Positions 25,785-44,174 of a stretch of 47,892 nt of DNA are shown here, piece after piece (within the stretch, counting starts at the first letter, position 1; every line of letters starts with the position of its first letter). The notes below the pieces were generated by a model that saw only the letters and a list, made by a program, of their open reading frames with translations, made no database searches and had not been told where the DNA came from. Source of the DNA: a virus; IMG/VR virus record IMGVR_UViG_3300009703_000002, positions 1 to 47,892 of that record; one strand, given 5' to 3'. Position numbers and translations under genes: made by a program.

Positions 25785-26324
25785 ATGAAAAAACCACTTA
25801 TTTTGTGGGGAGGAACAGATATTGGGACACACTTATACAATGAAGAGCCTTCTTCATTTACTGAGAAGCCTGACGTTCCTCGTGATATTAATGAAGAATT
25901 ATTAGTAAAAGAAGCTATTAAAAAAGGACAACCTATTATAGGTATTTGTCGAGGTTCACAACTTCTTTGTGCTCTTAATGGAGGGAAATTATGGCAACAT
26001 AGTAAAACAAAGCAACAAAGTCATTCTATTGTTGTGGTTAAGGATGGACATTTAATTTCTATGTGTCCAGCAGACCATCATCAAATAATGATTCCTAAAG
26101 GAGATTTTGAAATCCTTGCTTATAGTCCTCATACTTCTTATATCTGGGACGAAGAGCAACAAACTTACTTTGAGGTTATAGATACACCAGAAGTGGTTTG
26201 GTTTCCTAAGACTAAGTGTCTTGCAATACAACCACATCCTGAATGGACAACTAAGGAACATCCTTTTGTTCAGTGGATAAATAAAGTAATACAAGAGTTA
26301 GATATTAATTATGAATTTAAATAA
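25785..26324 (+). CDS. Class I glutamine amidotransferase / peptidase C26-like (gamma-glutamyl hydrolase-like) protein (179 aa)
   Basis: Nucleophile elbow PIIGICRGSQLL and the His-Pro-Glu motif IQPHPEW. Confidence 0.7.
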   Translation: MKKPLILWGGTDIGTHLYNEEPSSFTEKPDVPRDINEELLVKEAIKKGQPIIGICRGSQLLCALNGGKLWQHSKTKQQSHSIVVVKDGHLISMCPADHHQIMIPKGDFEILAYSPHTSYIWDEEQQTYFEVIDTPEVVWFPKTKCLAIQPHPEWTTKEHPFVQWINKVIQELDINYEFK

Positions 26325-26335
26325 GAAAGGTACTT

Positions 26336-27124
26336 ATGTTTGATACTATTGGAACAGATATAGAAGTTTTTGGTCTTTCTAAAACAGGAAAACCCTCTGC
26401 TATATGTGGTAAAATTGGAGGGACTAAAGAAAAACCTTTACAATTAAAAGAACATCCTAAGGGATTCTCTATTCAAGAGGATAATGTTGCCTTGGAATAT
26501 AATATTCCTGCTTGTGTTGACGTTCGTCAGTTTATATCTTATGTAGAACATATGAACATTGAGACAGATAAAATCCTTAAAAAACAAAACTTAACTAAAT
26601 CAAAAGAGTGTGCTCTGGAATTTAGTAAAGAAGAATTATCTCACCCTAATGCCCTTATTTTTGGATGTGAACCTGATTATAATGCTTGGAAATTAGTTGA
26701 GAATAAAAAACCTCTTTCTGAAAATAAATCTTTGCGTACTTGTGGAGGACATATTCATGTAGGGACACAGGCTCCTATTATAGAAGTTGTTAAATGGATG
26801 GATTTACTTCTTGGAATTCCTTCTGTTATTCTAGATGATTCTCCACAATCAATTAAACGAAGACTTTTATATGGAAAAGCTGGAGCTATGCGTCCTAAAA
26901 GCTATGGTTTAGAATATAGGGTTTTATCTAATTTCTGGACTTTTAAAAACTCTTTGGTTTCTTGGGTCGGTCATCAAACAGCATATGCTGTTGATAAAGC
27001 CCTTCTTGTAGAGCCTATTCAGAAGTCTTTAGGGCAAAGAATTCAGAATTGCATTAATACAGGGGACAAGAAAGAAGCTTTGTCTTTAATTAAAAAGTTT
27101 AATATTAATATGCCTTCTAAATAG
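26336..27124 (+). CDS. Glutamine-synthetase/GCS2-like COOH-NH2 ligase (phage amidoligase type 2-like) (262 aa)
   Basis: GTDIEVF, VALEYNIP and CGGHIHVG strands resemble the phiEco32-type COOH-NH2 ligase family as I recall it. Needs profile confirmation. Confidence 0.5.
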   Translation: MFDTIGTDIEVFGLSKTGKPSAICGKIGGTKEKPLQLKEHPKGFSIQEDNVALEYNIPACVDVRQFISYVEHMNIETDKILKKQNLTKSKECALEFSKEELSHPNALIFGCEPDYNAWKLVENKKPLSENKSLRTCGGHIHVGTQAPIIEVVKWMDLLLGIPSVILDDSPQSIKRRLLYGKAGAMRPKSYGLEYRVLSNFWTFKNSLVSWVGHQTAYAVDKALLVEPIQKSLGQRIQNCINTGDKKEALSLIKKFNINMPSK

Positions 27125-27133
27125 AGGAGAGAA

Positions 27134-27691
27134 ATGAGTTTAAATATAGAATTAACTAATCTTTTTGAATTACTTAACCCTTGGAAAGAGGCTAGAAATA
27201 AATTAAATAATACATATCTAATTATAAATGATAGTTTGGTTTTTGTTAATCATATCTCGGCTGAAGAACAAACTATTTATTATGTAAGCCTATTTACTGC
27301 ACCTCATGAGAAAAGCCTTTGTGATCATGAAGTAAAGACACTAAAAATTTGGTTGCCAGAAGCAGGGGTATATATAAATCGTGAAACAGGGTTTGTGGTT
27401 CTTACTTATAAAACAGCTAAAAGACAGTGGCTTAGGAGTTATAGTCCTACTTATTATAATAGTCAATTTTTAGTAGAAGGAAATAAACAGCAATTTTATA
27501 GCCCTTGTGGTTCTAAAATAGAAACAATTTTTAAGTATCCAAGACAAGATATTTGGGTTTCTAAAGATAAATTTATTTATTATTGGGCATTGAAGATTGG
27601 TTTTATTAAAGATTCAGAGACAGTTGTTTGTACAGACAATAGATTTAAACAAGAGATAATTGATTGGAGTAAAAAAGATGCCTACTATTAA
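27134..27691 (+). CDS. Hypothetical protein inside the amidoligase cassette (185 aa)
   Basis: ORF track; RBS AGAGGAGAGAA. No motif recognised. Confidence 0.6.
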   Translation: MSLNIELTNLFELLNPWKEARNKLNNTYLIINDSLVFVNHISAEEQTIYYVSLFTAPHEKSLCDHEVKTLKIWLPEAGVYINRETGFVVLTYKTAKRQWLRSYSPTYYNSQFLVEGNKQQFYSPCGSKIETIFKYPRQDIWVSKDKFIYYWALKIGFIKDSETVVCTDNRFKQEIIDWSKKDAYY

Positions 27692-28718
27692 GTCTACTTG
27701 GTCACAAAATGAGGCTCTTGCATATTATGTAAATAATACTAATGAGACTTTAGATTCAGTTATAGATATTCTTACTGAGGAAGTAGAAATGAATGAAATT
27801 AAATTTAATAAGATAAAACCAACAAATAAATTAGGGGATTTATTTTCCTATAAAAAACTTTCTCCTTATGTAGGTTTAAGAGGTAGGATTCCCATCAGAG
27901 CAAATACAACTTATGTTGGAGTAGAAATTGAAGTAGAAAAGGTTTTATCTGGTATAACTTTAGCAGGTACTTGGAGGTATGATAATGATGGTAGTTTAAA
28001 AGATAATGGAGCAGAGTTTGTTACTATTCCTATTAAAGCTAAATATTTAGAAATAGAATTAAGAAGACTTTTTAGTTCTATTAAAAAATCAGAAGCTACT
28101 TGTAGATGTTCTACTCATGTACATTTAAATGTAAGAGATTTTACTTTAGAGGAATTAAAAGTCTTTCTTGCTATTTACATGGTTTTTGAAAAGAGTCTAT
28201 ATAATTTTAGTGGGGCTAGATGGAATAATAATTATTGTGTTCCTCTATTCAACACCTCTTCAGAAGTATTAAATTTTGTATCTCGCTTAGATAGAATGTC
28301 TATGAAAGATTTTCCCACTTTTATGCATAAATATTCAGGATTAAATACTTGCCCTATTTATGGTGGAGAAAGTAAATTATTTGGAACCGTTGAGTTTCGT
28401 CATATGGAGGGGACAAAGGATACTACTTATATTTTAAATTGGATTAATTTAATAATATCTTTAAAGATATTTGCGAAGAAAACTAGGTTTATAGATTTAA
28501 ATGTACACTTACAAACGATGAATACAACTTCGGGTTATTATTGGTTAGCAAAAGAAGTTTTTGGTAATTGGGTACATTTAATAACAGAACAAAAAAGTTT
28601 TAAATCTGATGTGGAATCTTGTATTACTAAAGCTAAAACAATCTTTCAAAAGAAGAAGACTATAAAAAAAGAATTAAAATTAAACTTATCTGGAAAGGAT
28701 ATAATATGTGTGGAATAG
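27678..28718 (+). CDS. Amidoligase (GS-like putative amidoligase family) (346 aa from MPTIKSTW)
   Basis: YVGVEIEVE, DNDGSLKDNGAEFVTIP, STHVHLNV and GTVEFRHMEGT motifs. The start at 27678 has GGAG 8 nt upstream. Confidence 0.6.
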   Translation: MPTIKSTWSQNEALAYYVNNTNETLDSVIDILTEEVEMNEIKFNKIKPTNKLGDLFSYKKLSPYVGLRGRIPIRANTTYVGVEIEVEKVLSGITLAGTWRYDNDGSLKDNGAEFVTIPIKAKYLEIELRRLFSSIKKSEATCRCSTHVHLNVRDFTLEELKVFLAIYMVFEKSLYNFSGARWNNNYCVPLFNTSSEVLNFVSRLDRMSMKDFPTFMHKYSGLNTCPIYGGESKLFGTVEFRHMEGTKDTTYILNWINLIISLKIFAKKTRFIDLNVHLQTMNTTSGYYWLAKEVFGNWVHLITEQKSFKSDVESCITKAKTIFQKKKTIKKELKLNLSGKDIICVE

Positions 28719-29926
28719 TAGGAATAATTTCAAAAGAAACGATGGGACTGTCCTCTTTTCAAACAAGTGCATTTAATCAGATGCTTTTTGTAGATCAATT
28801 AAGGGGTATGGATGGGACAGGTATATTCTATAATAATAAAAGATATAAGCCTTCTGTTCAACTTGTTAAAGGAGCTATGACAGCCTCAGCTTTTCTACAA
28901 ACAGAGGCTTTTATAAAAGCAGACAAACAAATATATCAACAAGCAAATTTTGTTATTGGTCATAACCGTGCTGCTACTAAAGGAAAACATACCTTTAAAA
29001 ATACCCATCCATTCAAAGTAAAACATATTACACTAATTCATAATGGTACTCTACGAACTCAAAAAGAGCTTCATCCTGATTTAGAAGTAGATAGTCATGC
29101 TATATGTCATAGTATTGCTGAGATTGGATATAAGAAAACCTTAGAAAAACTTAATGGAGCTTTTGCTTTAGTCTGGTTTAATTCTAAAACAGGAAAACTA
29201 CATTTTTGTAGAAATCATGAGAGACCTCTTTTCCTTATTGAGTGTAATTTATGTTATGTTATTGTCTCTGAAGCTAAATTAGCTGAGTGGATATTAAGTA
29301 GAAACGGGATTAAAATTAAAAAAATAGTTCAAGTTCCAACAGAAAAAGTATTCTCTTTTCATATTGAAAATATGGGAGTTTATACAGAAGAGGAAGTAGA
29401 TTATAAAGATTGGTACTCTAGTACTTGGGGAGGCTATGGAGGATATTTAAAGGATAAAGAGGAGCAGTTATATAAACCACTTAAATTTAAAAAAGGCGAT
29501 GTTGTAAGATTTAGGACTGGTAGAATGATTGGTAAAGAAGGAGCCTTAGGAAATTATATTGAAGCAGATATTTTTAAGAATCAATATATTAATGAGAAAA
29601 AATATATTGACCTTGATTATGAAGATAAATGGAGAATTAAAGTTATCCCTTCTAAAAAAGCTCCTTTAACAAGTAGTTTAAGGCATGAATATAATTGTGC
29701 TGGAGAAATTATTAATACAAGTCTTTCTAGCGATGGTAAAACTACTTTTTATTATGTAGATAATATTATTATTATAGATGAAGAGAGTAATACGGTTCCT
29801 AATAAAGGAGCTTTAGTAGAGTGTGATAGTTGCCATGAATTCTCAAGAGAGTCTCATGTGTATATACAAGGATTTTTAATGTGTCCTAGTTGTTGTCAAT
29901 CTACTTTTAATTCCCACTTTGGTTAG
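28706..29926 (+). CDS. Class II (Ntn) glutamine amidotransferase domain protein with a Cys-rich C-terminal domain (406 aa)
   Basis: MCGIVG N-terminal nucleophile, GHNRAATKG, IHNGTL and VDSHAI motifs. The C-terminus has CDSCHEF...CPSCC. Confidence 0.75.
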   Translation: MCGIVGIISKETMGLSSFQTSAFNQMLFVDQLRGMDGTGIFYNNKRYKPSVQLVKGAMTASAFLQTEAFIKADKQIYQQANFVIGHNRAATKGKHTFKNTHPFKVKHITLIHNGTLRTQKELHPDLEVDSHAICHSIAEIGYKKTLEKLNGAFALVWFNSKTGKLHFCRNHERPLFLIECNLCYVIVSEAKLAEWILSRNGIKIKKIVQVPTEKVFSFHIENMGVYTEEEVDYKDWYSSTWGGYGGYLKDKEEQLYKPLKFKKGDVVRFRTGRMIGKEGALGNYIEADIFKNQYINEKKYIDLDYEDKWRIKVIPSKKAPLTSSLRHEYNCAGEIINTSLSSDGKTTFYYVDNIIIIDEESNTVPNKGALVECDSCHEFSRESHVYIQGFLMCPSCCQSTFNSHFG

Positions 29927-29940
29927 AGGAGAAAAATTAT

Positions 29941-30660
29941 ATGAAAAAAGCAATTATATTATATCCTGATATAGCTAAGGATTCTGCTAATGAGTTAGCA
30001 GATGCTCTAGGAATTGATAGAGAAAATCCTTATGAAACAAAAAATAGGCATTTTTTAGCTTATGATACTGTAATTCGATATGGGTTTTCCAGACCAGTAG
30101 CAGCTAATTCTTTTATAAATCATCGTAAAGGAATTAATAGAGCTATTAATAAATTAAAAGTTTTCTCTCTTTTGAAAGATTCTGTTAAGACATTAGAGTT
30201 TACAGAAGATATTAATGTGGCTAAGAAATGGTTAAAGGACGGTCATTATGCTGTAGCAAGAGCTAAAGGGGACTCGTCTAATGGTATTGGAGTAAGTTAT
30301 TGTGATACTTTAGAAGAATTAGAGGAAGCTCCAGCTCTATTTTGGACTAAATATGTTTTTCATGAGAAGGAGTATAGAGTAAATTTTTGGAGAGATGAGG
30401 TTATTTCTGTCTATGATAAGATTGTACCTAACCATGATTTTAAATTTAAACTTATGTTTAGTTTAACTAAACACCCACAATTACTTGATTTCGCTGAGAA
30501 AATATATGATAAGATAGGATTAGATTTTTACGGAGCAGACTTTCTTTGTGATGAAAAAGGAACACTCCACTTACTAGAAATAAATTCCAGTCCAGTATTA
30601 TTTCCACACACAATAAAGAAACTTAAAGCTAAACTTGAAAAGGAATTACAAAATGATTAA
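29941..30660 (+). CDS. ATP-grasp ligase (RimK-like size, 239 aa)
   Basis: GADFLCDEKGTLHLLEINSSP (E-x-N Mg/ATP motif) with preceding Lys/Glu-rich strands. Confidence 0.65.
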   Translation: MKKAIILYPDIAKDSANELADALGIDRENPYETKNRHFLAYDTVIRYGFSRPVAANSFINHRKGINRAINKLKVFSLLKDSVKTLEFTEDINVAKKWLKDGHYAVARAKGDSSNGIGVSYCDTLEELEEAPALFWTKYVFHEKEYRVNFWRDEVISVYDKIVPNHDFKFKLMFSLTKHPQLLDFAEKIYDKIGLDFYGADFLCDEKGTLHLLEINSSPVLFPHTIKKLKAKLEKELQND

Positions 30661-32799: not shown

Positions 32800-34842
32800 T
32801 TGCTCTTGGATAATCTCATGTCTAAATATGACAGAGACATTACCTTCCCAGAGTATCTCCATTCCGCGCAACAAGAGTGTCCTGATTATATACATCTCGT
32901 AGAGAGGTTACGAGATGAAGAGGTCGGTCAGGACATACTGCAAGACCTCATTCAAAAAACAATCGAGAGGCAGCAAGCATATGATCTATCTCTTCTCGCA
33001 ATTGATGCGGCAGAAGGTAGGAAACCTTTATCAGATGCTCTCGATTTCATGTCAAATATCCATGTAATAGAAGAAGAAGCAAACGAAGATGAATTTGTAA
33101 CAGATGATATTGAAGAGCTTTACAATGAAACAATTCATAAGAAGGGATTACGTTGGCGGCTAAATACTCTTAATAGGTCTCTTGGTAGTCTTAGAAAAGG
33201 AGACTTTGGGTTCATATTTGCTCGCCCAGAAACAGGTAAGACTACATTCTTAGCTTCAGAAGTAACAAATTTTGCAGAGCAAACTGATAAGCCTATCCTA
33301 TGGTTTAATAATGAGGAGGGTGGTAAAAAAGTTAAAGTGCGTATAGTTCAAGCATCTTTAGGTTATAATTTGACTCAGTTGTATAGCAATAGACCTCGTA
33401 GCCAAGAAGTATTTATTAAAAATACTAAAGGTAATATTAAACTTAAAGACTCTGCAACAATAACTAAACGTCAAATTGAGAAGCTGTGTAAAGAGTTTGA
33501 CCCTGCTCTCATAGTATTTGACCAGATAGATAAAATCAAAGGCTTTAATGCTGATAGAGAGGATTTACGTCTAGGTGCGATTTACATATGGGCAAGAGAG
33601 TTGGCAAAACAATATTGTCCCGTTATAGGTATATGTCAGGCAGATGTATCAGGAGAGAATAAAAAATATCTCACTATGGAGAATGTTGCCAATGCAAAAT
33701 GTTTAGCACCAAATACTAAGGTATTGATGTTTAATGGTAAATGGAAGAGGGTTGATTCTATCTCTGTAGGAGAACAAGTTATGGGTATTGATAATACACC
33801 AAGAACAGTTTTATCTACAACTAATGGGGTAGAAGAGATGTTTTCTGTTTCTCACAAAATAGGTGGAGATACCTATGTTGTTAATAAGTCTCATATTCTA
33901 GCTCTTGAAAGTCAATCTGGTAGAAAGATTAATAAAAATATTCTTTCTTATAATCAATTTGATTTTGGTTATCGGGTATCTCATAACCTTCCAGAAGCTA
34001 TTTTGCCTATAGACCCTTATTTTCTAGGAGCTTGGTTAGGTGATGGCGGGAAGGATAAGGCTGAGATTACTACGATAGACCCTGAGATTGTTGAAGTAGT
34101 TAAAGAGGAAAGTTCTAAATGGGGATGTACATACACTCAATATATTGAGAAAGAAAGTATAATACATGCTCGTATGAAGTTTCATCAAGGTATTAAACAC
34201 CCCTTTTTAAATAAACTTAAGGAACTTAATTTATATAGAAATAAACATATTCCCCAAGAATATTTTCAGAGTTCTATAGAGCAGAGGTTACAGTTAATAG
34301 CAGGTCTATTAGATACTGATGGGACAAAAGTAGTTAAGAAACATGAGTATTATAGTTTTTCTAACAAGAATTATCTAATTGCTCATGGTCTAAAAGAATT
34401 AGCTCTTTCTTGTGGTCTAATGGCAACATTTAAACAAAGAGGTATTTATTACTATGTAACAATATCTGGAAATGATTTAGGGATTATTCCCATTAGGATT
34501 AAAAGAAAGAAATCTAATTATAAGACACATAAAAATGTACTTAAATCGAGACTTAAAATTACTCCTTTAGGAGTAGGTGAGTATGCCGGAATTGCTATTG
34601 ATGGAGATCATTTGTTTATTATAGAGAATAATATTGTTACTCATAATACAAGTAAGCAAGCTGAGGCAGACTGGATTCTTGGTATAGGCACAGTTCATGA
34701 CGAGGGATTAAAGTATGTGCGATTCCTACACCTATCTAAGAATAAATTGACTGGTGATGAGGATAGTGACCCAGCCTTACGTCATGGACGAATGGACGTA
34801 TTAATCCAACCGGAGATAGCTCGTTATCGAGATTTTAAATGA
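32800..34842 (+). CDS. Replicative hexameric helicase (T7 gp4 C-terminal-half / DnaB-like) interrupted by an intein. The true start may lie upstream of 32800.
   Basis: Walker A FARPETGKTTF, Walker B LIVFDQIDK, and ICQADVSGE. After the intein, TSKQAEADWILGIG completes the motif. The track start is a TTG. Confidence 0.8.
   Translation: MLLDNLMSKYDRDITFPEYLHSAQQECPDYIHLVERLRDEEVGQDILQDLIQKTIERQQAYDLSLLAIDAAEGRKPLSDALDFMSNIHVIEEEANEDEFVTDDIEELYNETIHKKGLRWRLNTLNRSLGSLRKGDFGFIFARPETGKTTFLASEVTNFAEQTDKPILWFNNEEGGKKVKVRIVQASLGYNLTQLYSNRPRSQEVFIKNTKGNIKLKDSATITKRQIEKLCKEFDPALIVFDQIDKIKGFNADREDLRLGAIYIWARELAKQYCPVIGICQADVSGENKKYLTMENVANAKCLAPNTKVLMFNGKWKRVDSISVGEQVMGIDNTPRTVLSTTNGVEEMFSVSHKIGGDTYVVNKSHILALESQSGRKINKNILSYNQFDFGYRVSHNLPEAILPIDPYFLGAWLGDGGKDKAEITTIDPEIVEVVKEESSKWGCTYTQYIEKESIIHARMKFHQGIKHPFLNKLKELNLYRNKHIPQEYFQSSIEQRLQLIAGLLDTDGTKVVKKHEYYSFSNKNYLIAHGLKELALSCGLMATFKQRGIYYYVTISGNDLGIIPIRIKRKKSNYKTHKNVLKSRLKITPLGVGEYAGIAIDGDHLFIIENNIVTHNTSKQAEADWILGIGTVHDEGLKYVRFLHLSKNKLTGDEDSDPALRHGRMDVLIQPEIARYRDFK
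33700..34647 (+). mobile_element. Intein (316 aa) with a LAGLIDADG homing-endonuclease domain
   Basis: Starts with Cys (CLAPNTKVLMF), ends with THN, and the +1 residue is Thr. It has a block B-like VNKSHIL and two LAGLIDADG motifs (FLGAWLGDGG, LIAGLLDTDG). Confidence 0.85.
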
Positions 34843-35993
34843 AACCCTTAATACTTGATGTAGAAACAACTATCAGTAATAAAGGCAATCCTTTTGACCA
34901 ATCTAATAAATTAGTTTGTGTTGGAATAAAAACAAAAGAAGTCTCAGAGATTCTATATATTCCAGGTTCATTGGAAGACTATATGTATCTACAAGGATAT
35001 ATAGATTCTTGTGATATTCTGGTAGGATTTAATATCAAATTTGATCTACATTGGTTAAGAAAAATTGGAATTAAATTCGACCATAAACCAATCTGGGATT
35101 GTCAATTAGGTGAGTTTATCTTAAATAATCAAAAAATTAAGATGCCTAGTTTAGATGATAGTTGTGAACGAAGAGGACTAGGAAAGAAAATTGATACAAT
35201 TAAACTTAATTATTGGGATAAAGGTATCAATACAGATGAAATTCCTCGTGAGGAACTATCTGAATATTTAGCTCAAGACCTAGCATTGACAGAAGAACTA
35301 TACAAGATACAACGAGAAATCTTTCAAAAAGATAATCGGTATCGAGTATTTAAACTTCAATGTCAAGATTTACTTGTCCTTGAAGAAATGGAATGGAATG
35401 GACTTGTCTTTAATACAGAAAAGGCTCGTGCTAGAGCTAAAGAACTACAAGGAACTTTAGATGGAATCTACAAAGAGATTCTTAATACAGTTGGCAACAT
35501 TCCTATTAATATTAACTCTAATCATCATCTTTCCGCTATTCTTTATGGTGGGAATATCGTGGTGGAGTCTCGAATACCTATCGGGGTATTTAAAACAGGT
35601 AAGAAAATAGGACAAATAAGAAACAAAGTAATTAAAAAGGTTTATGAATTACCCCGTTTGGTTGAGCCATTAAAAAATACAGAGGCAAAAGTACCAGAAG
35701 GAAGTTTACCAATATGGAAAACAAATGAGGATATTCTTAGAGCGTTAAAGGCTAACAAGTCTACACGGTATCTAATAAATTTATGCCTTGAATTTGCTAG
35801 TGTTGAAAAATTAAGAGGTACATACCTTGAAGGTTGGAGCAATCTAATTGATAAAATGAATTGGCCTCACAACAAGATACACGGTAATCTTAATCAGACA
35901 ACAGCCATAACATGTAGATTAAGTAGTACAAAACCTAATTTACAGAATGCCGATCCAATAACTAAAATATATTGTGAGAGTAGATATGAATGA
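34839..35993 (+). CDS. Family A DNA polymerase, piece 1 (3'-5' exonuclease domain and the N-terminal part of the polymerase domain, 384 aa)
   Basis: Exo motifs LILDVETT, GFNIKFDLHWL and YLAQDLALT are present. It ends just after RLSSTKPNLQN, which normally precedes motif A. Confidence 0.8.
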   Translation: MKPLILDVETTISNKGNPFDQSNKLVCVGIKTKEVSEILYIPGSLEDYMYLQGYIDSCDILVGFNIKFDLHWLRKIGIKFDHKPIWDCQLGEFILNNQKIKMPSLDDSCERRGLGKKIDTIKLNYWDKGINTDEIPREELSEYLAQDLALTEELYKIQREIFQKDNRYRVFKLQCQDLLVLEEMEWNGLVFNTEKARARAKELQGTLDGIYKEILNTVGNIPININSNHHLSAILYGGNIVVESRIPIGVFKTGKKIGQIRNKVIKKVYELPRLVEPLKNTEAKVPEGSLPIWKTNEDILRALKANKSTRYLINLCLEFASVEKLRGTYLEGWSNLIDKMNWPHNKIHGNLNQTTAITCRLSSTKPNLQNADPITKIYCESRYE

Positions 35994-36090: not shown

Positions 36091-36804
36091 ATGATAATTA
36101 ACTGTGATGCAAAGGGACTAGAATGGTATTGTGCTGCCTATCTCTCACAAGACAAGGTAGCAATGCAAGAGATTTATGATGGAATTGACCAACATGGAAG
36201 TAATCAAAAAGCATTTGGTCTTCCCACTAGATTAATCTCTAAGGTATTTTTATTCCGTATTATTTATGCAAATTTAAAGTATGCAGCACATACATATGCT
36301 AATGATGCAGATTTTATGGGAACAAGTTCTAGTAAGAAATTTTGGCAAAAAGTAATAGATGAATTCGTAACTAAGTATAATGGATTCACAGCATGGCATG
36401 ATAGACTAGTTCAAGAGGTAACTCAAACAGGACGGATAGTCATGCCCACTGGAAGAATTTATTCTTTTGATAGAGATAAAAAAGGCGAATGGCCTATTAC
36501 TCAGATATATAATTATCCAGTACAGGGACTTGGTGCAGATATTATGTCTATTATACGAATATCATTTAGAAAGAGGTTTATAGATGCAGGTGTCGCTGGT
36601 GTTATTATTAATACAGTCCACGATTCTATTGTCGTTGATGTACCCAAACATGAATTACCCAGAGTGGCTCAAATATTTTATGATGTATTTAATGACTTTC
36701 CAGCTAACTTTAAGCGTGTTTTTGGTTTGGAATTTAATCTTCCATTAAGATGTGAGATTCTATATGGAAATAATATGAAGGAGTTAGAAGAGTATGGGAT
36801 ATAA
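36091..36804 (+). CDS. Family A DNA polymerase, piece 2 (motifs A, B, C; 237 aa)
   Basis: Motif A-like INCDAKGLEWYCAAYLS, motif B-like RLISKVFLFRIIYA, and motif C-like NTVHDSIVVD. Confidence 0.8.
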   Translation: MIINCDAKGLEWYCAAYLSQDKVAMQEIYDGIDQHGSNQKAFGLPTRLISKVFLFRIIYANLKYAAHTYANDADFMGTSSSKKFWQKVIDEFVTKYNGFTAWHDRLVQEVTQTGRIVMPTGRIYSFDRDKKGEWPITQIYNYPVQGLGADIMSIIRISFRKRFIDAGVAGVIINTVHDSIVVDVPKHELPRVAQIFYDVFNDFPANFKRVFGLEFNLPLRCEILYGNNMKELEEYGI

Positions 36805-40692: not shown

Positions 40693-40871
40693 GTATTACA
40701 TTAGTAGAACTAGAAGAAAAATTAAAAGATATTGATGAGATTACTTTATTAGAAACTCTTAATATTACAAGTGAAGAGTTAGTTGATAGATTTGAAGATA
40801 GAATTGAAGATTCCTTTGAATCTCTAGCTAAAGATTTTGAGTTAGCAAAGGATAATAATGACGAAGAATGA
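40689..40871 (+). CDS. Small highly acidic protein (60 aa)
   Basis: ORF track; Glu/Asp-rich. Confidence 0.5.
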   Translation: MSITLVELEEKLKDIDEITLLETLNITSEELVDRFEDRIEDSFESLAKDFELAKDNNDEE

Positions 40872-41055
40872 ATTACCAACAACATATCAGACAGTAATTA
40901 GTAAGAGTCGCTATGCTCGTTATCTCCCAGAGGAGAAACGTAGGGAGTCATGGGAAGAGACTGTAGATAGAGCAGTAGACTTTCTTCACAAACAAATAGA
41001 GGCTTCAACTGCATCTAAAGAAGATAAAAAATACATGAAAGAGATTTTAGGATGA
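40858..41055 (+). CDS. nrdJ: Class II ribonucleotide reductase, N-terminal fragment (65 aa)
   Basis: YQTVISKSRYARYLPEEKRRESWEETVDRAV is the characteristic NrdJ N-terminus. Confidence 0.7.
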   Translation: MTKNELPTTYQTVISKSRYARYLPEEKRRESWEETVDRAVDFLHKQIEASTASKEDKKYMKEILG

Positions 41056-41447
41056 AGCCAAAGAAAGTTTATGATGACCACAAAAGGCATGCTTTAGATA
41101 GAGGTATTGGTTGGCAAATATCCTATGAAGATTGGTTAGAATTATGGTTGAATAGTAATAAATGGACACAACGAGGAAAAACAAAAGGTAAGTATCAAAT
41201 GTGTCGGTATGGTGATACAGGAGCTTATAATATTAAGAATTGTTATATAGGTTCTGTAGAACAAAATCAAGAAGACCGCTCCAAGATTAATATTAGCGTT
41301 GTTAGGGCTATTGTCTTTGAGTACCTATCATCAGGAAAAACTCAGTATGACGTTGCAAAAGAATTCGGTGTAGACCAATCTTATGTGAGTCGTCTTGTAA
41401 ACAAGCACAGGAGGAATCATGGACAAATCCATCAGACAAGCAATTAA
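41052..41447 (+). mobile_element. Free-standing homing-endonuclease-like gene (131 aa) inserted within nrdJ
   Basis: RYGDTGAYNIKNCYIGSVEQNQED resembles the HNH_3 pattern HH-x-DG-x5-N-x2-NL-x4-EN but lacks the first His. The C-terminal helix-turn-helix is TQYDVAKEFGVDQSYVSRLV. ATGA overlap upstream; 29-nt overlap downstream. Confidence 0.55.
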
Positions 41448-43167
41448 AGATTTAGATATATGTCCTAGTATGCGTTTAATGATGTCAGCAGGTGAAGCTT
41501 GTAATCGAGATAATATTTCAGCCTATAATTGTGCTTATGTGGCTATTAATAATAAACGAGCTTTTAGTGAAGCTCTTTATGTATTAATGAATGGTACAGG
41601 AGTCGGATTTAGTTGCGAGAGACAGGAAATTGCTGGTCTACCAGTAGTACCAGAAAAGCTTGAATATGTTGATGATGTTGTTGTAATTGGAGATAGTAAA
41701 TTAGGATGGGCAAAAGCTTTTAAGAAATTATTATCATCTCTTTGGGAAGGAGACATACCTACATTTGATTTCTCTCGTGTCAGACCCGCAGGGGCTAGAC
41801 TCAAGACATTTGGTGGACGTGCCTCTGGGCCTGACCCTTTAAAGAAGCTCTTCGACTTTGTTGTTGAAACCTTCAAAACAGCACAAGGACGCAAGCTTAC
41901 TAGCCTTGAAGTCCACGACATTATGTGTATGATTGGGGAGATTGTAGTAGTTGGTGGTGTTCGTAGATCGGCTTTGATTAGTTTATCTAATCTTACTGAT
42001 AAAAGAATGAGAGAAGCTAAATCAGGTGCTTGGTATAATGATTATTCATATAGAGGATTAGCTAATAATAGTGTTTCTTATACCGAGAAGCCTGATGTTG
42101 AAACTTTTATGGAAGAATGGCTTAGCTTAGTTAAATCTAAATCAGGTGAGCGTGGAATCTATAATCGAGTGGCTGCTCAAAACCAAGCCTCACGATGGGA
42201 TAGGAGAGCTAAGGATATAGCTTATGGAACAAACCCATGCAGTGAAATCATCTTACGAGATAAGCAATTCTGTAATCTCACAGAAGTAGTCGTGCGACCA
42301 AACGACACCTATGAAACTCTTAAACATAAAGTAGAATTAGCAACAATTCTAGGTACTATTCAATCAACACTGACAAATTTTAATTTTCTTAGTGAAGCTT
42401 GGAAAAAGAATACGGAAGAAGAAAGATTGCTTGGCGTATCCTTAACTGGTATCATGGATAATGAATTTCTTAGTGGTTCTGATAGGCCAAAAGGAGACGA
42501 TTATTTACCACAAGCTTTGGAGAACTTAAGAGCTTATGCAAGAATAACAAATGAAAAGTGGGCTAAAAAACTGGATATTCCTGTTTCTACTGCTATTACT
42601 TGTGTTAAGCCTAGTGGTACAGTATCTCAATTGGTGGATAGTGCTTCTGGGATTCATGCTAGGCACAATCCTTATTACATAAGACGTATTCGAATGGATA
42701 AAAAAGACCCTATATATACATTTTTAAAAGATAAGGGTATTCCAGTAGAAGACGAGGTTTTTAGACCTGAGAGTACTGCTGTATTTAGTTTTCCAATGAA
42801 GGCTCCTGACAATGCTATCTGTCGTAATGATATGACTTCAATTGAGCAACTTGAACTATGGTTAATTTATCAACGACATTGGTGTGAGCATAAACCTTCA
42901 GTAACTATTACAGTTAAGGATTCGGAGTGGCCTGAAGTAGGTTCTTGGGTGTGGAAATATTTTGATGAAATTAGTGGAGTTAGTTTTCTTCCTCATTCTA
43001 ATCATACATATCAACAAGCCCCATATGAGGATATAACAGAAGAAAAATATAATGAATTGCTATCTCAAATGCCTACAGGTATTAATTGGGAAGAGTTTGT
43101 AGAAGATGAGGATAACACAGAAGGTACACAGACACTAGCATGTGCTGCTGGTAATTGTGAGATTTAA
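41419..43167 (+). CDS. nrdJ: Class II (cobalamin-dependent) ribonucleotide reductase, main body (582 aa)
   Basis: CPSMRLMMSAGEA, AYNCAYV, GTGVGFS, the catalytic loop TNPCSEIIL...FCNLTEV, and the C-terminal Cys pair CAAGNCEI. Confidence 0.85.
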   Translation: MDKSIRQAIKDLDICPSMRLMMSAGEACNRDNISAYNCAYVAINNKRAFSEALYVLMNGTGVGFSCERQEIAGLPVVPEKLEYVDDVVVIGDSKLGWAKAFKKLLSSLWEGDIPTFDFSRVRPAGARLKTFGGRASGPDPLKKLFDFVVETFKTAQGRKLTSLEVHDIMCMIGEIVVVGGVRRSALISLSNLTDKRMREAKSGAWYNDYSYRGLANNSVSYTEKPDVETFMEEWLSLVKSKSGERGIYNRVAAQNQASRWDRRAKDIAYGTNPCSEIILRDKQFCNLTEVVVRPNDTYETLKHKVELATILGTIQSTLTNFNFLSEAWKKNTEEERLLGVSLTGIMDNEFLSGSDRPKGDDYLPQALENLRAYARITNEKWAKKLDIPVSTAITCVKPSGTVSQLVDSASGIHARHNPYYIRRIRMDKKDPIYTFLKDKGIPVEDEVFRPESTAVFSFPMKAPDNAICRNDMTSIEQLELWLIYQRHWCEHKPSVTITVKDSEWPEVGSWVWKYFDEISGVSFLPHSNHTYQQAPYEDITEEKYNELLSQMPTGINWEEFVEDEDNTEGTQTLACAAGNCEI

Positions 43168-43285
43168 TAGTGTTATATGGAATGATTTAACTCTTCCACC
43201 AATTAATTTAAACAATATGCCCTGTGCATTATGGTTCTATAATAAAGAATACTATGATAAACATTATTTGATAGTCGATGATTAC

Positions 43286-43402
43286 GGGGGTGATTTGGAC
43301 GATAGAGGAGAGATTTAGTCAGGTAGGTAGTGACCTATCAACCACTTGTGAAAAGTGTCTCAATTCTTTAACGCGGGGTTCGACTCCTCGCCACCTCCAC
43401 CA
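43286..43402 (+). ncRNA. 117-nt tmRNA-like (tRNA-Ala-like domain) RNA
   Basis: The 7-bp acceptor stem GGGGGTG/CACCTCC has a G3-U70 wobble, followed by discriminator A and an encoded CCA. The T arm is CGGGG-TTCGACT-CCTCG. The 5' GGGGGUGAUUUGGACGA and 3' ACGCGGGGUUCGACUCCUCGCCACCUCCACCA closely parallel E. coli ssrA ends as I recall them. Two internal hairpins lie at 43322-39 and 43343-57. Confidence 0.6.
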
Positions 43403-43420
43403 TTTTAAGAAAGGAAAAGT

Positions 43421-43528
43421 ATGTGTGTAGTTAGTATGATTTCAGATCAACCTGACTGTGAAAAAGGTGATTTAGTTGAATGGGAAAAACAAATGGAAGA
43501 ATTTCTTAGGAAGAAAGGGTTAATCTAA
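43421..43528 (+). CDS. Micro-ORF, 35 aa (MCVVSMISDQPDCEKGDLVEWEKQMEEFLRKKGLI)
   Basis: Manual translation; RBS GAAAGGAAAAGT precedes the ATG. Confidence 0.4.
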   Translation: MCVVSMISDQPDCEKGDLVEWEKQMEEFLRKKGLI

Positions 43529-43530
43529 AA

Positions 43531-43725
43531 ATGAAACAACTTAAAAAAGATTTACAGTCTTTAGTAGAAGACATACGAACAAATTCAAAGATTAATATGA
43601 AGGAACAACATCCTCTATTTAAGTGGAAGTATGATGATGATCCCACGATTGAATTTCAATTAATGATTAGAGAAATTGAAGAGTTCGCACCTGAGCAACT
43701 TGAATTTAATTTGAAAGATAAGTAA
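43531..43725 (+). CDS. Hypothetical protein (64 aa)
   Basis: ORF track. Confidence 0.5.
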   Translation: MKQLKKDLQSLVEDIRTNSKINMKEQHPLFKWKYDDDPTIEFQLMIREIEEFAPEQLEFNLKDK

Positions 43726-44102
43726 TGAAAGCTTGTATAATTGGTAGTCGCTCTATTACTAGACCAGAAGTAATCTTTCCTATTATTGATAAATTTATTC
43801 GTAATCATATTATAGGAGAACCAACTATAATTAGTGGTGGAGCAAATGGAGTAGATTCAAATGCAAAAGAATATGCTAAGGTTCAAGGATTTGATTTTGT
43901 TGAATTCCTTCCCTATCATTTAGTAGATAAACACACACCTTTTTCTGCAAAACACTTTTATTCTAGAAATAGGCAGATGATTTCTAATGCAGATATTGTA
44001 CTTGCTATATGGGATGAAGAGTCTTCTGGTACTCAGCACTCAATTAAGTATGCTCAGAAGCTTGGAGTCCCTGTTATGGTGGTAAAAGTACCTAAATCTT
44101 AA
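43725..44102 (+). CDS. SLOG/DprA-LOG-like Rossmann protein (DUF2493-like) (125 aa)
   Basis: IIGSRS...ISGGANGVDSNAKEYA...IWDEESSGTQHSI fits the GGAxGxD-type SLOG pattern as I recall it. Confidence 0.5.
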   Translation: MKACIIGSRSITRPEVIFPIIDKFIRNHIIGEPTIISGGANGVDSNAKEYAKVQGFDFVEFLPYHLVDKHTPFSAKHFYSRNRQMISNADIVLAIWDEESSGTQHSIKYAQKLGVPVMVVKVPKS

Positions 44103-44145: not shown

Positions 44146-44174
44146 AAGGGTAGCCATAGAGCTACCCTTTTTTA
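44146..44174 (+). terminator. Hairpin terminator at the convergence of the two arms
   Basis: AAGGGTAGC (44146-54) pairs with GCTACCCTT (44161-69) around a 6-nt loop, followed by a T run on the plus strand. On the minus strand the stem lacks a T tail. Confidence 0.7.

Follow-up and report, generated by a model that had tools for sequence, protein, structure and literature searches.

A tmRNA-like RNA without a tag reading frame in an aquatic podophage genome, and its counterparts across viral contigs

Background

Trans-translation is the main ribosome-rescue and protein-tagging pathway of bacteria, and to our knowledge little is known of how phages deal with it. This study concerns a 117-nt element on the plus strand, at positions 43286-43402 of a viral DNA stretch of 47,892 nucleotides (IMG/VR record IMGVR_UViG_3300009703_000002, positions 1 to 47,892; the whole stretch is hereafter the window), which has the features of the TLD (tRNA-like domain) of transfer-messenger RNA (tmRNA) and no open reading frame (ORF) for a tag. 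Homologues of tmRNA reduced to the TLD have already been described, and the RNA of the window is a divergent addition to them. In phages, the Mycobacterium phage DS6A carries such an RNA, catalogued by Hudson, Lau and Williams as 'Mycobacterium phage DS6A (TLD only)' and entered in the tmRNA Website as 'Phage__Mycobacterium.9'. When tested in E. coli it is reported to inhibit the tmRNA of the cell, 'perhaps acting by titrating SmpB' (PMC4131195; PMC11915505). We located the DS6A RNA, which is unannotated in GenBank, at L158:28478-28560. Like the window RNA it comes from a phage gene, contains a short P2 and a D-loop analogue besides a T arm and an acceptor stem bearing a G3·U70 pair, and has neither a tag ORF nor a pseudoknot. 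It is GC-rich, only 83 nt long, ends in ACUA with no encoded CCA, and has the canonical CGAC...G-CAC and a 5-bp T stem, whereas the window RNA is longer (117 nt), has two hairpins more in its interior, reads AAC where GGAC is usual, and possesses an encoded CCA and a T stem of 6 bp. The phages themselves also differ, DS6A being a temperate siphophage with an integrase and the phage of the window a lytic-type podophage. DS6A additionally encodes an RtcB-like RNA ligase, gp76 (L158 49300-50502), of which no counterpart was seen in the window; RtcB has been reported to act mainly on tmRNA (PMC11090510).

Organelles provide further examples. Versions of tmRNA without a coding sequence (CDS-less) occur in mitochondria and, at a length of ~65 bp, in two plastids, and natural tags of 2 amino acids have been reported (PMC11915505). 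Those of jakobid and oomycete mitochondria (RF02544) and of Mallomonadaceae plastids are, like the window RNA, TLD-only. They differ in often having a permuted gene order and in being the only tmRNA of their compartment, beside an imported SmpB; they are not competitors of a resident full-length tmRNA. Full-length tmRNA genes have been reported in 2.3% of phage genomes (PMC9004378), and these phage-borne ssrA homologues, found in the Bxz1 group of mycobacteriophages and in marine myophages such as Melnitz (PMC9004378; PMC4131195), keep the tag ORF and the pseudoknots and are detectable with ARAGORN, whereas the window RNA has neither of these parts. In the one-piece tmRNA of bacteria (RF00023; E.g. 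the 363-nt ssrA of E. coli) the TLD is comparable, with a 5' end of the form GGGGNUGAUU..GGA..CGA and a 3' end of the form ACGCGGG(G)UUCRACUCC..GCCANCUCCACCA. Relative to it, ~250 nt are missing from the window RNA, and with them the tag ORF, its resume codon and pseudoknots PK1-PK4; the base of P2 likewise has no tandem GAC/GGA pairing. An isolated TLD fragment of ~63 nt binds SmpB, with the deformed D arm as the main contact (PMC3985003), and a TLD-only construct accepts peptidyl transfer (PMC3895274).

Identification of the RNA

A first-pass annotation of the window, made from the letters of the sequence, had proposed a phage tmRNA-like RNA with a complete alanine-type TLD and no tag ORF. 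This proposal is borne out by an Rfam alignment, by an interior free of GCN codons and by the existence of many analogous phage RNAs. With permissive thresholds, positions 1-374 of the Rfam tmRNA model (RF00023) aligned at exactly 43286-43402, with a score of 42.7 bits and an E-value of 9.3e-16 in a 501-nt search, equivalent to ~1e-13 when rescaled to the whole window. In this alignment 259 internal model positions are deleted and 17 nt stand in their place. The gathering score of RF00023 is 47 bits, and an Rfam scan at gathering thresholds returned nothing in the window. The top-scoring member of the Rfam clan is tmRNA rather than tRNA, and a structural descriptor combining the acceptor stem, the T arm and G3·U70 has a single match in the 47.9-kb window. 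Among the checks that the annotation had named, the Rfam tmRNA model aligned from end to end, though at a score below its threshold, and ARAGORN remained silent, calling 0 genes in the window, that is no tRNA, tmRNA or tag.

The elements first noted in the RNA, GGGGGUGAUUUGGACGAUAGAGGAGAGAUUUAGUCAGGUAGGUAGUGACCUAUCAACCACUUGUGAAAAGUGUCUCAAUUCUUUAACGCGGGGUUCGACUCCUCGCCACCUCCACCA, are all present: its acceptor stem of 7 bp includes G3·U70 and leads into a discriminator A and an encoded CCA, and there is a T arm, whose loop is of the TΨC type. Both the sequence and the minimum free energy (MFE) fold agree on these elements. The T stem gains a sixth pair, G-C 43373/43391, outside the CGGGG/CCUCG core. 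The MFE fold (-38.3 kcal/mol) further reproduces the two interior hairpins of the annotation at the same coordinates. It also contains the P2-like helix, although the extent of the latter had to be revised: the fold pairs 43303-13 with 43358-70, somewhat wider than the 43309-15 with 43362-69 originally given. In the row of the window RNA in an alignment guided by a covariance model, 6/6 modelled P2 pairs are canonical or G·U. The fold has neither a D arm nor an anticodon arm; with no cloverleaf, no ARAGORN call and Rfam favouring tmRNA, we rejected tRNA-Ala as an identity. Given the end-to-end Rfam alignment, the full acceptor stem, G3·U70, ACCA, T arm and P2-like helix, and the absence of a cloverleaf or a tag ORF, we identify the RNA as TLD-only: a complete TLD with a short P2-like helix, below 150 nt in length. 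This pattern is far beyond chance.

Two canonical elements are altered. Where other forms have a deformed D arm of the type GG...CGAC and a GGAC before the T arm, the window RNA reads GGACGA and AAC, and the covariance-model alignment shows its D-loop analogue to be shorter than the canonical forms and without CGAC. The interior likewise has nothing of an mRNA-like domain, in that no resume codon with a stop-closed tag ORF is present. The resume codon of tmRNA is nearly always GCN, and there is no GC dinucleotide, hence no such codon, in 43314-43372. Pseudoknots corresponding to PK1-PK4, which tmRNA has between the two strands of P2, are absent from the window RNA, its interior of ~69 nt holding two simple hairpins. 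The interior hairpins have no support of their own, because the folding z (-1.7) is unexceptional, and the first of them has no comparative support since no close homologue exists. The second was placed by MAFFT opposite the P2 stem-loop of the short forms of related phages described below. When the window RNA was aligned with four AT-rich metagenome forms, RNAalifold recovered the acceptor stem and the T arm alone, because MAFFT had misaligned the window RNA.

TLD-only RNAs in viral contigs

A strict pattern built on the canonical motifs matched 96 IMG/VR contigs, among which there are 70 unique sequences, 67-92 nt in length, and looser patterns add about 30 contigs beyond these. The first-pass annotation had thought the size of the window RNA unusual; this finds no support, as CDS-less tmRNAs of ~65-83 nt are documented and the 70 unique sequences are of the same order. 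The acceptor stem measures 7 bp in every one of the 70 and comes in 17 variants, with no demand from the pattern for pairing at positions 5-7; the T stem is paired in 70/70 and P2 is paired at 5/5 positions in 57/70, neither of which the pattern imposed. Nine of 13 tested members score above the Rfam tmRNA gathering score (49-78 bits), while the AT-rich metagenome forms L162, L164, L167 and L178 reach 43-47 bits, like the window RNA. These four also share with it AAC in place of GGAC, and a 6-bp T stem recurs in L170/L185 and L146. A tRNA lies within 300 nt in 23/96 strict-pattern contigs, and in the metagenome forms L162 and L164 a tRNA is only 1-3 nt away. Since only 7/96 of these contigs have any overlapping ARAGORN call, annotation based on this program misses most TLD-only RNAs.

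Other searches agree. A loose two-anchor pattern gave 76 IMG/VR loci, from which tRNA-Ala genes and 3' parts of real tmRNAs were removed with ARAGORN, leaving about 20 loci with 88-118-nt RNAs of the same plan as the window RNA. An acceptor-specific pattern gave 27 metagenome loci, with ~18 minis, several of them adjoining tRNA genes; in 185,579 cellular genomes (596 Gb) the acceptor-specific pattern had 7 matches, namely five tmRNA 3' parts, one tRNA-Ala and one mini on a 7.5-kb contig of a metagenome-assembled genome. In a covariance-model-guided alignment of 29 longer forms, including the window RNA, 147/174 P2 cells are canonical as against 75 ± 6 in shuffles, and the extent to which acceptor stem, P2 and T stem covary was reached by 0/5000 permutations, figures that apply to a set whose acceptor stems were pre-selected for 7/7 pairing and whose alignment was fitted to the model. 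Thus, TLD-only RNAs constitute a large, nearly virus-only class under structural selection, often situated inside tRNA arrays. In the literature covered, which is incomplete, we found no description of their breadth in viromes. Against cultured phages, blastn with the TLDs of DS6A and of L212 (a relative of the window phage, see below) gave T-arm-sized matches only.

A covariance model built for TLD-only RNAs gives the window RNA 37.9 bits (E 9e-6 in 1.46 Mb); elsewhere tRNA-Ala genes score ~40 bits with the same model, and 3' parts of full tmRNAs score 42-47 bits. It also matches elements of 57-76 nt (L159:870-945, L137:5393-5461, L140:12895-12951, L096:2856-2914, L154:3880-3936 and L086:12087-12145), which are possibly TLDs of even smaller size; that of L159 lies between a 93-nt TLD and tRNA-His/tRNA-Met. 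Two tRNA-like genes, L154:3441-3532 and L141:4887-4981, one of them on a 353-kb viral contig, combine alanine identity (G3·U70, ACCA) and a normal D arm with the anticodon arm CAUUC-UGUUAAG-GAAUG; ARAGORN is silent on both, and with their anticodon UUA they may be ochre suppressors. One 6.7-kb viral contig with an 89-nt TLD-only RNA also carries a HEARO RNA (RF02033, 170.6 bits) at L124:794-1003.

TLD-only RNAs in the lineage of the window phage

Twelve of the 96 strict-pattern contigs are relatives of the window phage, sharing with it polymerase, helicase, exonuclease and endonuclease genes. Their ribonucleotide reductase (RNR) is 58-82% identical to that of the window, and 72-82% identical in 9/10 of those carrying an RNR. 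Most have a 78-nt TLD on the replication strand, either ~215 nt upstream of a p60-p65-RNR block or ~4 kb upstream. P2 displays compensatory changes among these variants (AACAUG/CAUGUU, AGUGUG/CAUACU, UAGGUG/CAUCUA and AGAGCG/CGCUCU), and so does the T stem. The forms of the Zobellviridae-like contigs L212/L073 (78 nt) and L229 (76 nt) come from the same lineage, strand and RNR neighborhood as the window RNA. They differ from it in being ~40 nt shorter, in keeping CGAC/GGAC with scores of 69-73 bits against tmRNA models, and in lying upstream of RNR where the window RNA lies downstream. The TLD of L229 is identical to the window RNA in its first 13 nt and in the acceptor stem. As 12 relatives carry them, and L229 shares its 5' end with the window RNA, TLD-only genes recur and move about in this lineage, the window copy being an expanded and divergent one in a new position. 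The extra ~40 nt can be read in two homology registers: as a 37-nt insertion in the D-loop analogue (MAFFT), or as a longer P2 with two hairpins (MFE fold). The AAC of the AT-rich metagenome forms, and their long P2 that directly abuts it, would speak for the latter.

For synteny comparison we took 80 IMG/VR loci with an RNR 73-85% identical to that of the window. At the syntenic position in these loci the window RNA is missing by blastn, ARAGORN, the structural descriptor and the covariance model alike. In L003 (RNR 80%) the RNR stop is followed, after ~110 nt, by a homologue of the 64-aa ORF that borders the window RNA, and in most relatives a gene for a SLOG-domain protein begins within ~140 nt of RNR, with no TLD in the gap. 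No TLD of any kind was found in the closest syntenic relatives, L003 and L002, or in the three closest deposited genomes. A blastn search of 50,697 phage genomes with the window RNA gave no homologue, an IMG/VR pattern fixed to its 6-bp T stem had 0 matches, and the 64-aa neighboring protein has no homologue in a collection of 5.8 billion proteins, in which the window phage is a singleton, the next RNR being 84% identical. Being missing from syntenic relatives, the window RNA is thus an accessory insertion with a patchy distribution in the phage lineage. ARAGORN found no tmRNA in the 80 loci and a single kind of tRNA, tRNA-Arg(tct), in 4 relatives (L025:3659-3735, L050:3473-3549, L062:3475-3551 and L066:231-307), just upstream of the RNR block, in the neighborhood where L212-type relatives have their 78-nt TLD; small RNA genes of this lineage thus seem to have a hot spot there.

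Features and genomic setting

The window corresponds to nearly the whole of a podophage contig (ENA ERZ27251152 k141_1786512, 47,910 bp), which is AT-rich (about 34% GC) and has its structural genes on the minus strand and its replication genes on the plus strand, from ~22.7 to 44.1 kb. By large terminase the nearest deposited genomes are a Manatee Spring virome genome (77%) and MEP401 and MEP402 (72%), the latter two being phages of Methylophilales (OM43) of the Zobellviridae. Pfam and PHROG scans found no integrase in the window, and none is annotated in the nearest deposited relatives. The gene-free gap that holds the RNA (Table 1) is bordered by the RNR gene (41419-43167) and the 64-aa ORF (43531-43725), and includes an uncalled 35-aa ORF (43421-43528). 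An ATG ORF of 50 aa (43278-43430) spans the RNA itself; a protein-coding reading of it was rejected, since it has no PHROG match and is not called as a gene. We found no sigma-70 promoter match of at least 9/12 upstream of the RNA, and the sole terminator-like site is at 44146-44169, where two gene blocks converge; we therefore infer that co-transcription followed by tRNA-like processing is the simplest route of expression.

Table 1. The 117-nt RNA of the window, part by part, and the gap in which it lies (MFE, minimum free energy).
Feature	Position (strand)	Description
Gene-free gap holding the RNA	43168..43530 (+)	363 nt; gene calls empty on source contig
Acceptor stem, 5' strand	43286..43292 (+)	GGGGGUG; G3 at 43288; 7/7 pairs with 43392-98; Rfam tmRNA positions 1-7
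D-loop analogue	43293..43302 (+)	AUUUGGACGA; GG dinucleotide, no D stem; unpaired in MFE fold
P2-like helix, 5' strand	43303..43313 (+)	UAGAGGA + GAGA; MFE pairing with 43358-70
Internal loop	43314..43321 (+)	UUUAGUCA; UAGUC string at 43316-20; unpaired in MFE fold; AGG UAG next
Interior hairpin 1	43322..43339 (+)	7 bp, loop AGUG; MFE fold
Interior hairpin 2	43343..43357 (+)	5 bp, loop GUGAA; MFE fold
P2-like helix, 3' strand	43358..43370 (+)	MFE fold
AC linker 5' of T arm	43371..43372 (+)	With A43370 reads AAC; GGAC there in canonical forms
T arm	43373..43391 (+)	6-bp stem GCGGGG/CCUCGC (one G·U), loop UUCGACU
Acceptor stem, 3' strand	43392..43398 (+)	CACCUCC; U70 at 43396
Discriminator A and encoded CCA	43399..43402 (+)	

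The RNR gene upstream of the gap is split. A 65-aa ORF (40858-41055) covers positions 27-82 of phrog_367 and represents the N-terminus, a 131-aa HNH/HTH-like ORF (41052-41447) lies between the parts, and the body of 582 aa (41419-43167) covers phrog_367 84-696, where relatives have a single ORF of 625-650 aa; the arrangement (40858-43167) looks like a homing-endonuclease insertion. The DnaB-like helicase ORF (32800-34842) contains an intein, made up of a Hint and a LAGLIDADG homing-endonuclease domain, and the family A DNA polymerase occupies two ORFs (34839-35993 and 36091-36804), as it is annotated in MEP401/MEP402. An early-region cluster (25785-30660) comprises genes for a glutamine amidotransferase, a phiEco32-like COOH-NH2 ligase, an amidoligase and a TTL-like protein, and is also present in the Manatee Spring relative. 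Downstream of the gap, a 125-aa SLOG/DprA-like (YspA-related) protein is encoded at 43725-44102; its gene directly follows RNR in 34/80 related loci.

Proposed role and alternative explanations

By analogy with the DS6A RNA, we lean on balance towards the view that the phage has here a gene whose TLD-only tmRNA homologue acts as a decoy for SmpB and alanyl-tRNA synthetase (AlaRS) against host trans-translation. The RNA would be transcribed with the late part of the plus-strand replication operon, excised like a tRNA through RNase P cleavage at G43286 and 3' trimming to the encoded CCA, charged with alanine by the host AlaRS through G3·U70 and A73, and bound by the host SmpB and possibly EF-Tu. 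Having no resume codon, tag ORF or pseudoknots, it could not complete trans-translation and would instead compete with the host tmRNA for SmpB, AlaRS and stalled ribosomes. As a consequence, ssrA tagging and the linked mRNA decay might be lowered or short-circuited during infection, with the potential benefit that phage products of damaged or truncated mRNAs are spared. Titration of SmpB, AlaRS or EF-Tu in this manner, the second of the two functions that the first-pass annotation had put forward, would be consistent with the explanation published for DS6A.

Several points weigh against such a role. 1) The RNA is dispensable in the lineage, because the closest relatives have no TLD. 2) In the absence of a close copy, purifying selection on the window copy itself cannot be shown; nor is covariation measurable on it, because the RNA is absent from syntenic relatives and the phage is a singleton. 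3) The score lies under the Rfam gathering score, and the TLD-only model ranks the RNA no higher than an ordinary tRNA-Ala. 4) The 6-bp T stem results in a 13-bp acceptor/T stack, which, going by tRNA-Sec, could weaken EF-Tu binding. 5) The advantage that a block of trans-translation would bring to a lytic phage is hypothetical. 6) The RNA is without the CGAC...GGAC motif, a region of extensive contact with SmpB (PMC3985003).

The anatomy that suggests a decoy could equally serve its productive counterpart, rescue without tagging, in which the alanyl-TLD with SmpB would enter stalled ribosomes and take over the nascent chain and the peptidyl-TLD would be released and hydrolysed (by drop-off and Pth, or by an ArfB-type activity), freeing ribosomes for phage translation with products unmarked for proteolysis. 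We consider this a possibility of lesser weight. TLD-only constructs do accept peptidyl transfer (PMC3895274), the CDS-less tmRNAs of mitochondria occur together with an imported SmpB, their presumed purpose being to 'help these cells deal with incomplete mRNAs' (PMC11915505), and the presence of many class members in tRNA arrays would fit a translation-supporting role. However, the sole experimental report on a phage TLD-only RNA is one of tmRNA inhibition and not of rescue, Pfam and PHROG scans of the window found no homologue of ArfB, Pth or SmpB, and the divergent D-loop analogue and the 13-bp stack cast doubt on productive delivery. A decaying remnant, either of a former complete phage tmRNA or of a short TLD-only gene with an insertion, drifting without function, is in our estimate unlikely. 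It would account for a singleton copy missing from the closest relatives, with no CGAC/GGAC motif, a sub-threshold Rfam score and a folding z of only -1.7, in which MAFFT sees a TLD of the short lineage type, enlarged by an insertion of 37 nt. Yet nothing is broken in the acceptor stem (7/7 pairs) or in the T arm (6/6 pairs and a T loop of consensus type), and G3·U70, A73 and CCA are kept as well; such GC-rich elements would erode fast in a genome of ~34% GC. Moreover, the mutual complementarity of 43303-13 and 43358-70 is unexpected for a random insertion, and four unrelated AT-rich metagenome TLDs have the same AAC variant and a long P2.

That the RNA lies within an operon and possesses neither its own promoter nor its own terminator would also suit a fold that is merely an RNase P/RNase Z site splitting the RNR message from the small ORFs, and the spanning 50-aa ORF could alternatively be coding. 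This pair of readings we hold to be improbable: a processing signal needs no G3·U70, no A73 with CCA and no tmRNA-type D-loop analogue, relatives do without such an element at the same junction, and the ORF has neither a family match nor a gene call. Less probable still is a minimal but complete tmRNA, in which UAGUC sets the resumption on AGG (43321-23), the stop codon UAG (43324-26) follows, and Ala-Arg alone is added. The first-pass annotation had correctly recorded UAGUC followed by AGG UAG, and the strings of E. coli ssrA that it quoted were right, including UAGUC before the GCA resume codon. UAGUC lies here in an unpaired loop, and natural tags go down to 2 aa (PMC11915505). We very much doubt that the extra interior domain, absent from the phage TLDs of 66-92 nt, is a one-codon message UAGUC-AGG-UAG making the RNA a self-sufficient agent of trans-translation; if it were, it would represent non-degradative phage rescue by normal termination, and no smaller functional tmRNA would be known. 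The RNA has neither a pseudoknot nor an alanine resume codon, ARAGORN reports no tag, the codon is placed at the base of a 7-bp hairpin, and chance stop codons are frequent in AT-rich sequence. The related short forms vary at the string (UUUAG, GUCAG, GUUAG) and have no ORF, so that, with no homologue conserving it, the weight given earlier to this string as a vestigial message also finds no support. Finally, tmRNA genes are common integration sites and their fragments occur in prophages (PMC9004378; PMC4131195), and the annotation had named a captured host ssrA attachment site as what would refute it. We rejected such an integration or excision product, the least probable reading of all, as both TLD halves are present and perfectly paired where attachment fragments carry the 3' part only, no integrase was found in the window or is annotated in relatives, and the 30-nt 3' end has 0 exact matches in 185,579 reference genomes.

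Implications

Before this work one phage TLD-only RNA, that of DS6A, was on record, and the window adds a lytic aquatic podophage. The breadth of the class is a more interesting result than the window copy. The latter is divergent, a singleton and from a phage not in culture, and so recommends itself poorly for experiments, for which DS6A or the 78-nt forms of the related contigs would be the better start. With at least 96 IMG/VR contigs on one strict pattern and dozens more on looser ones, compensatory changes in every helix and almost no occurrence in cellular genomes, TLD-only RNAs are no curiosity. If they are indeed decoys for SmpB and AlaRS, they would constitute a widespread RNA-based tool of phages against a core quality-control system of their hosts.

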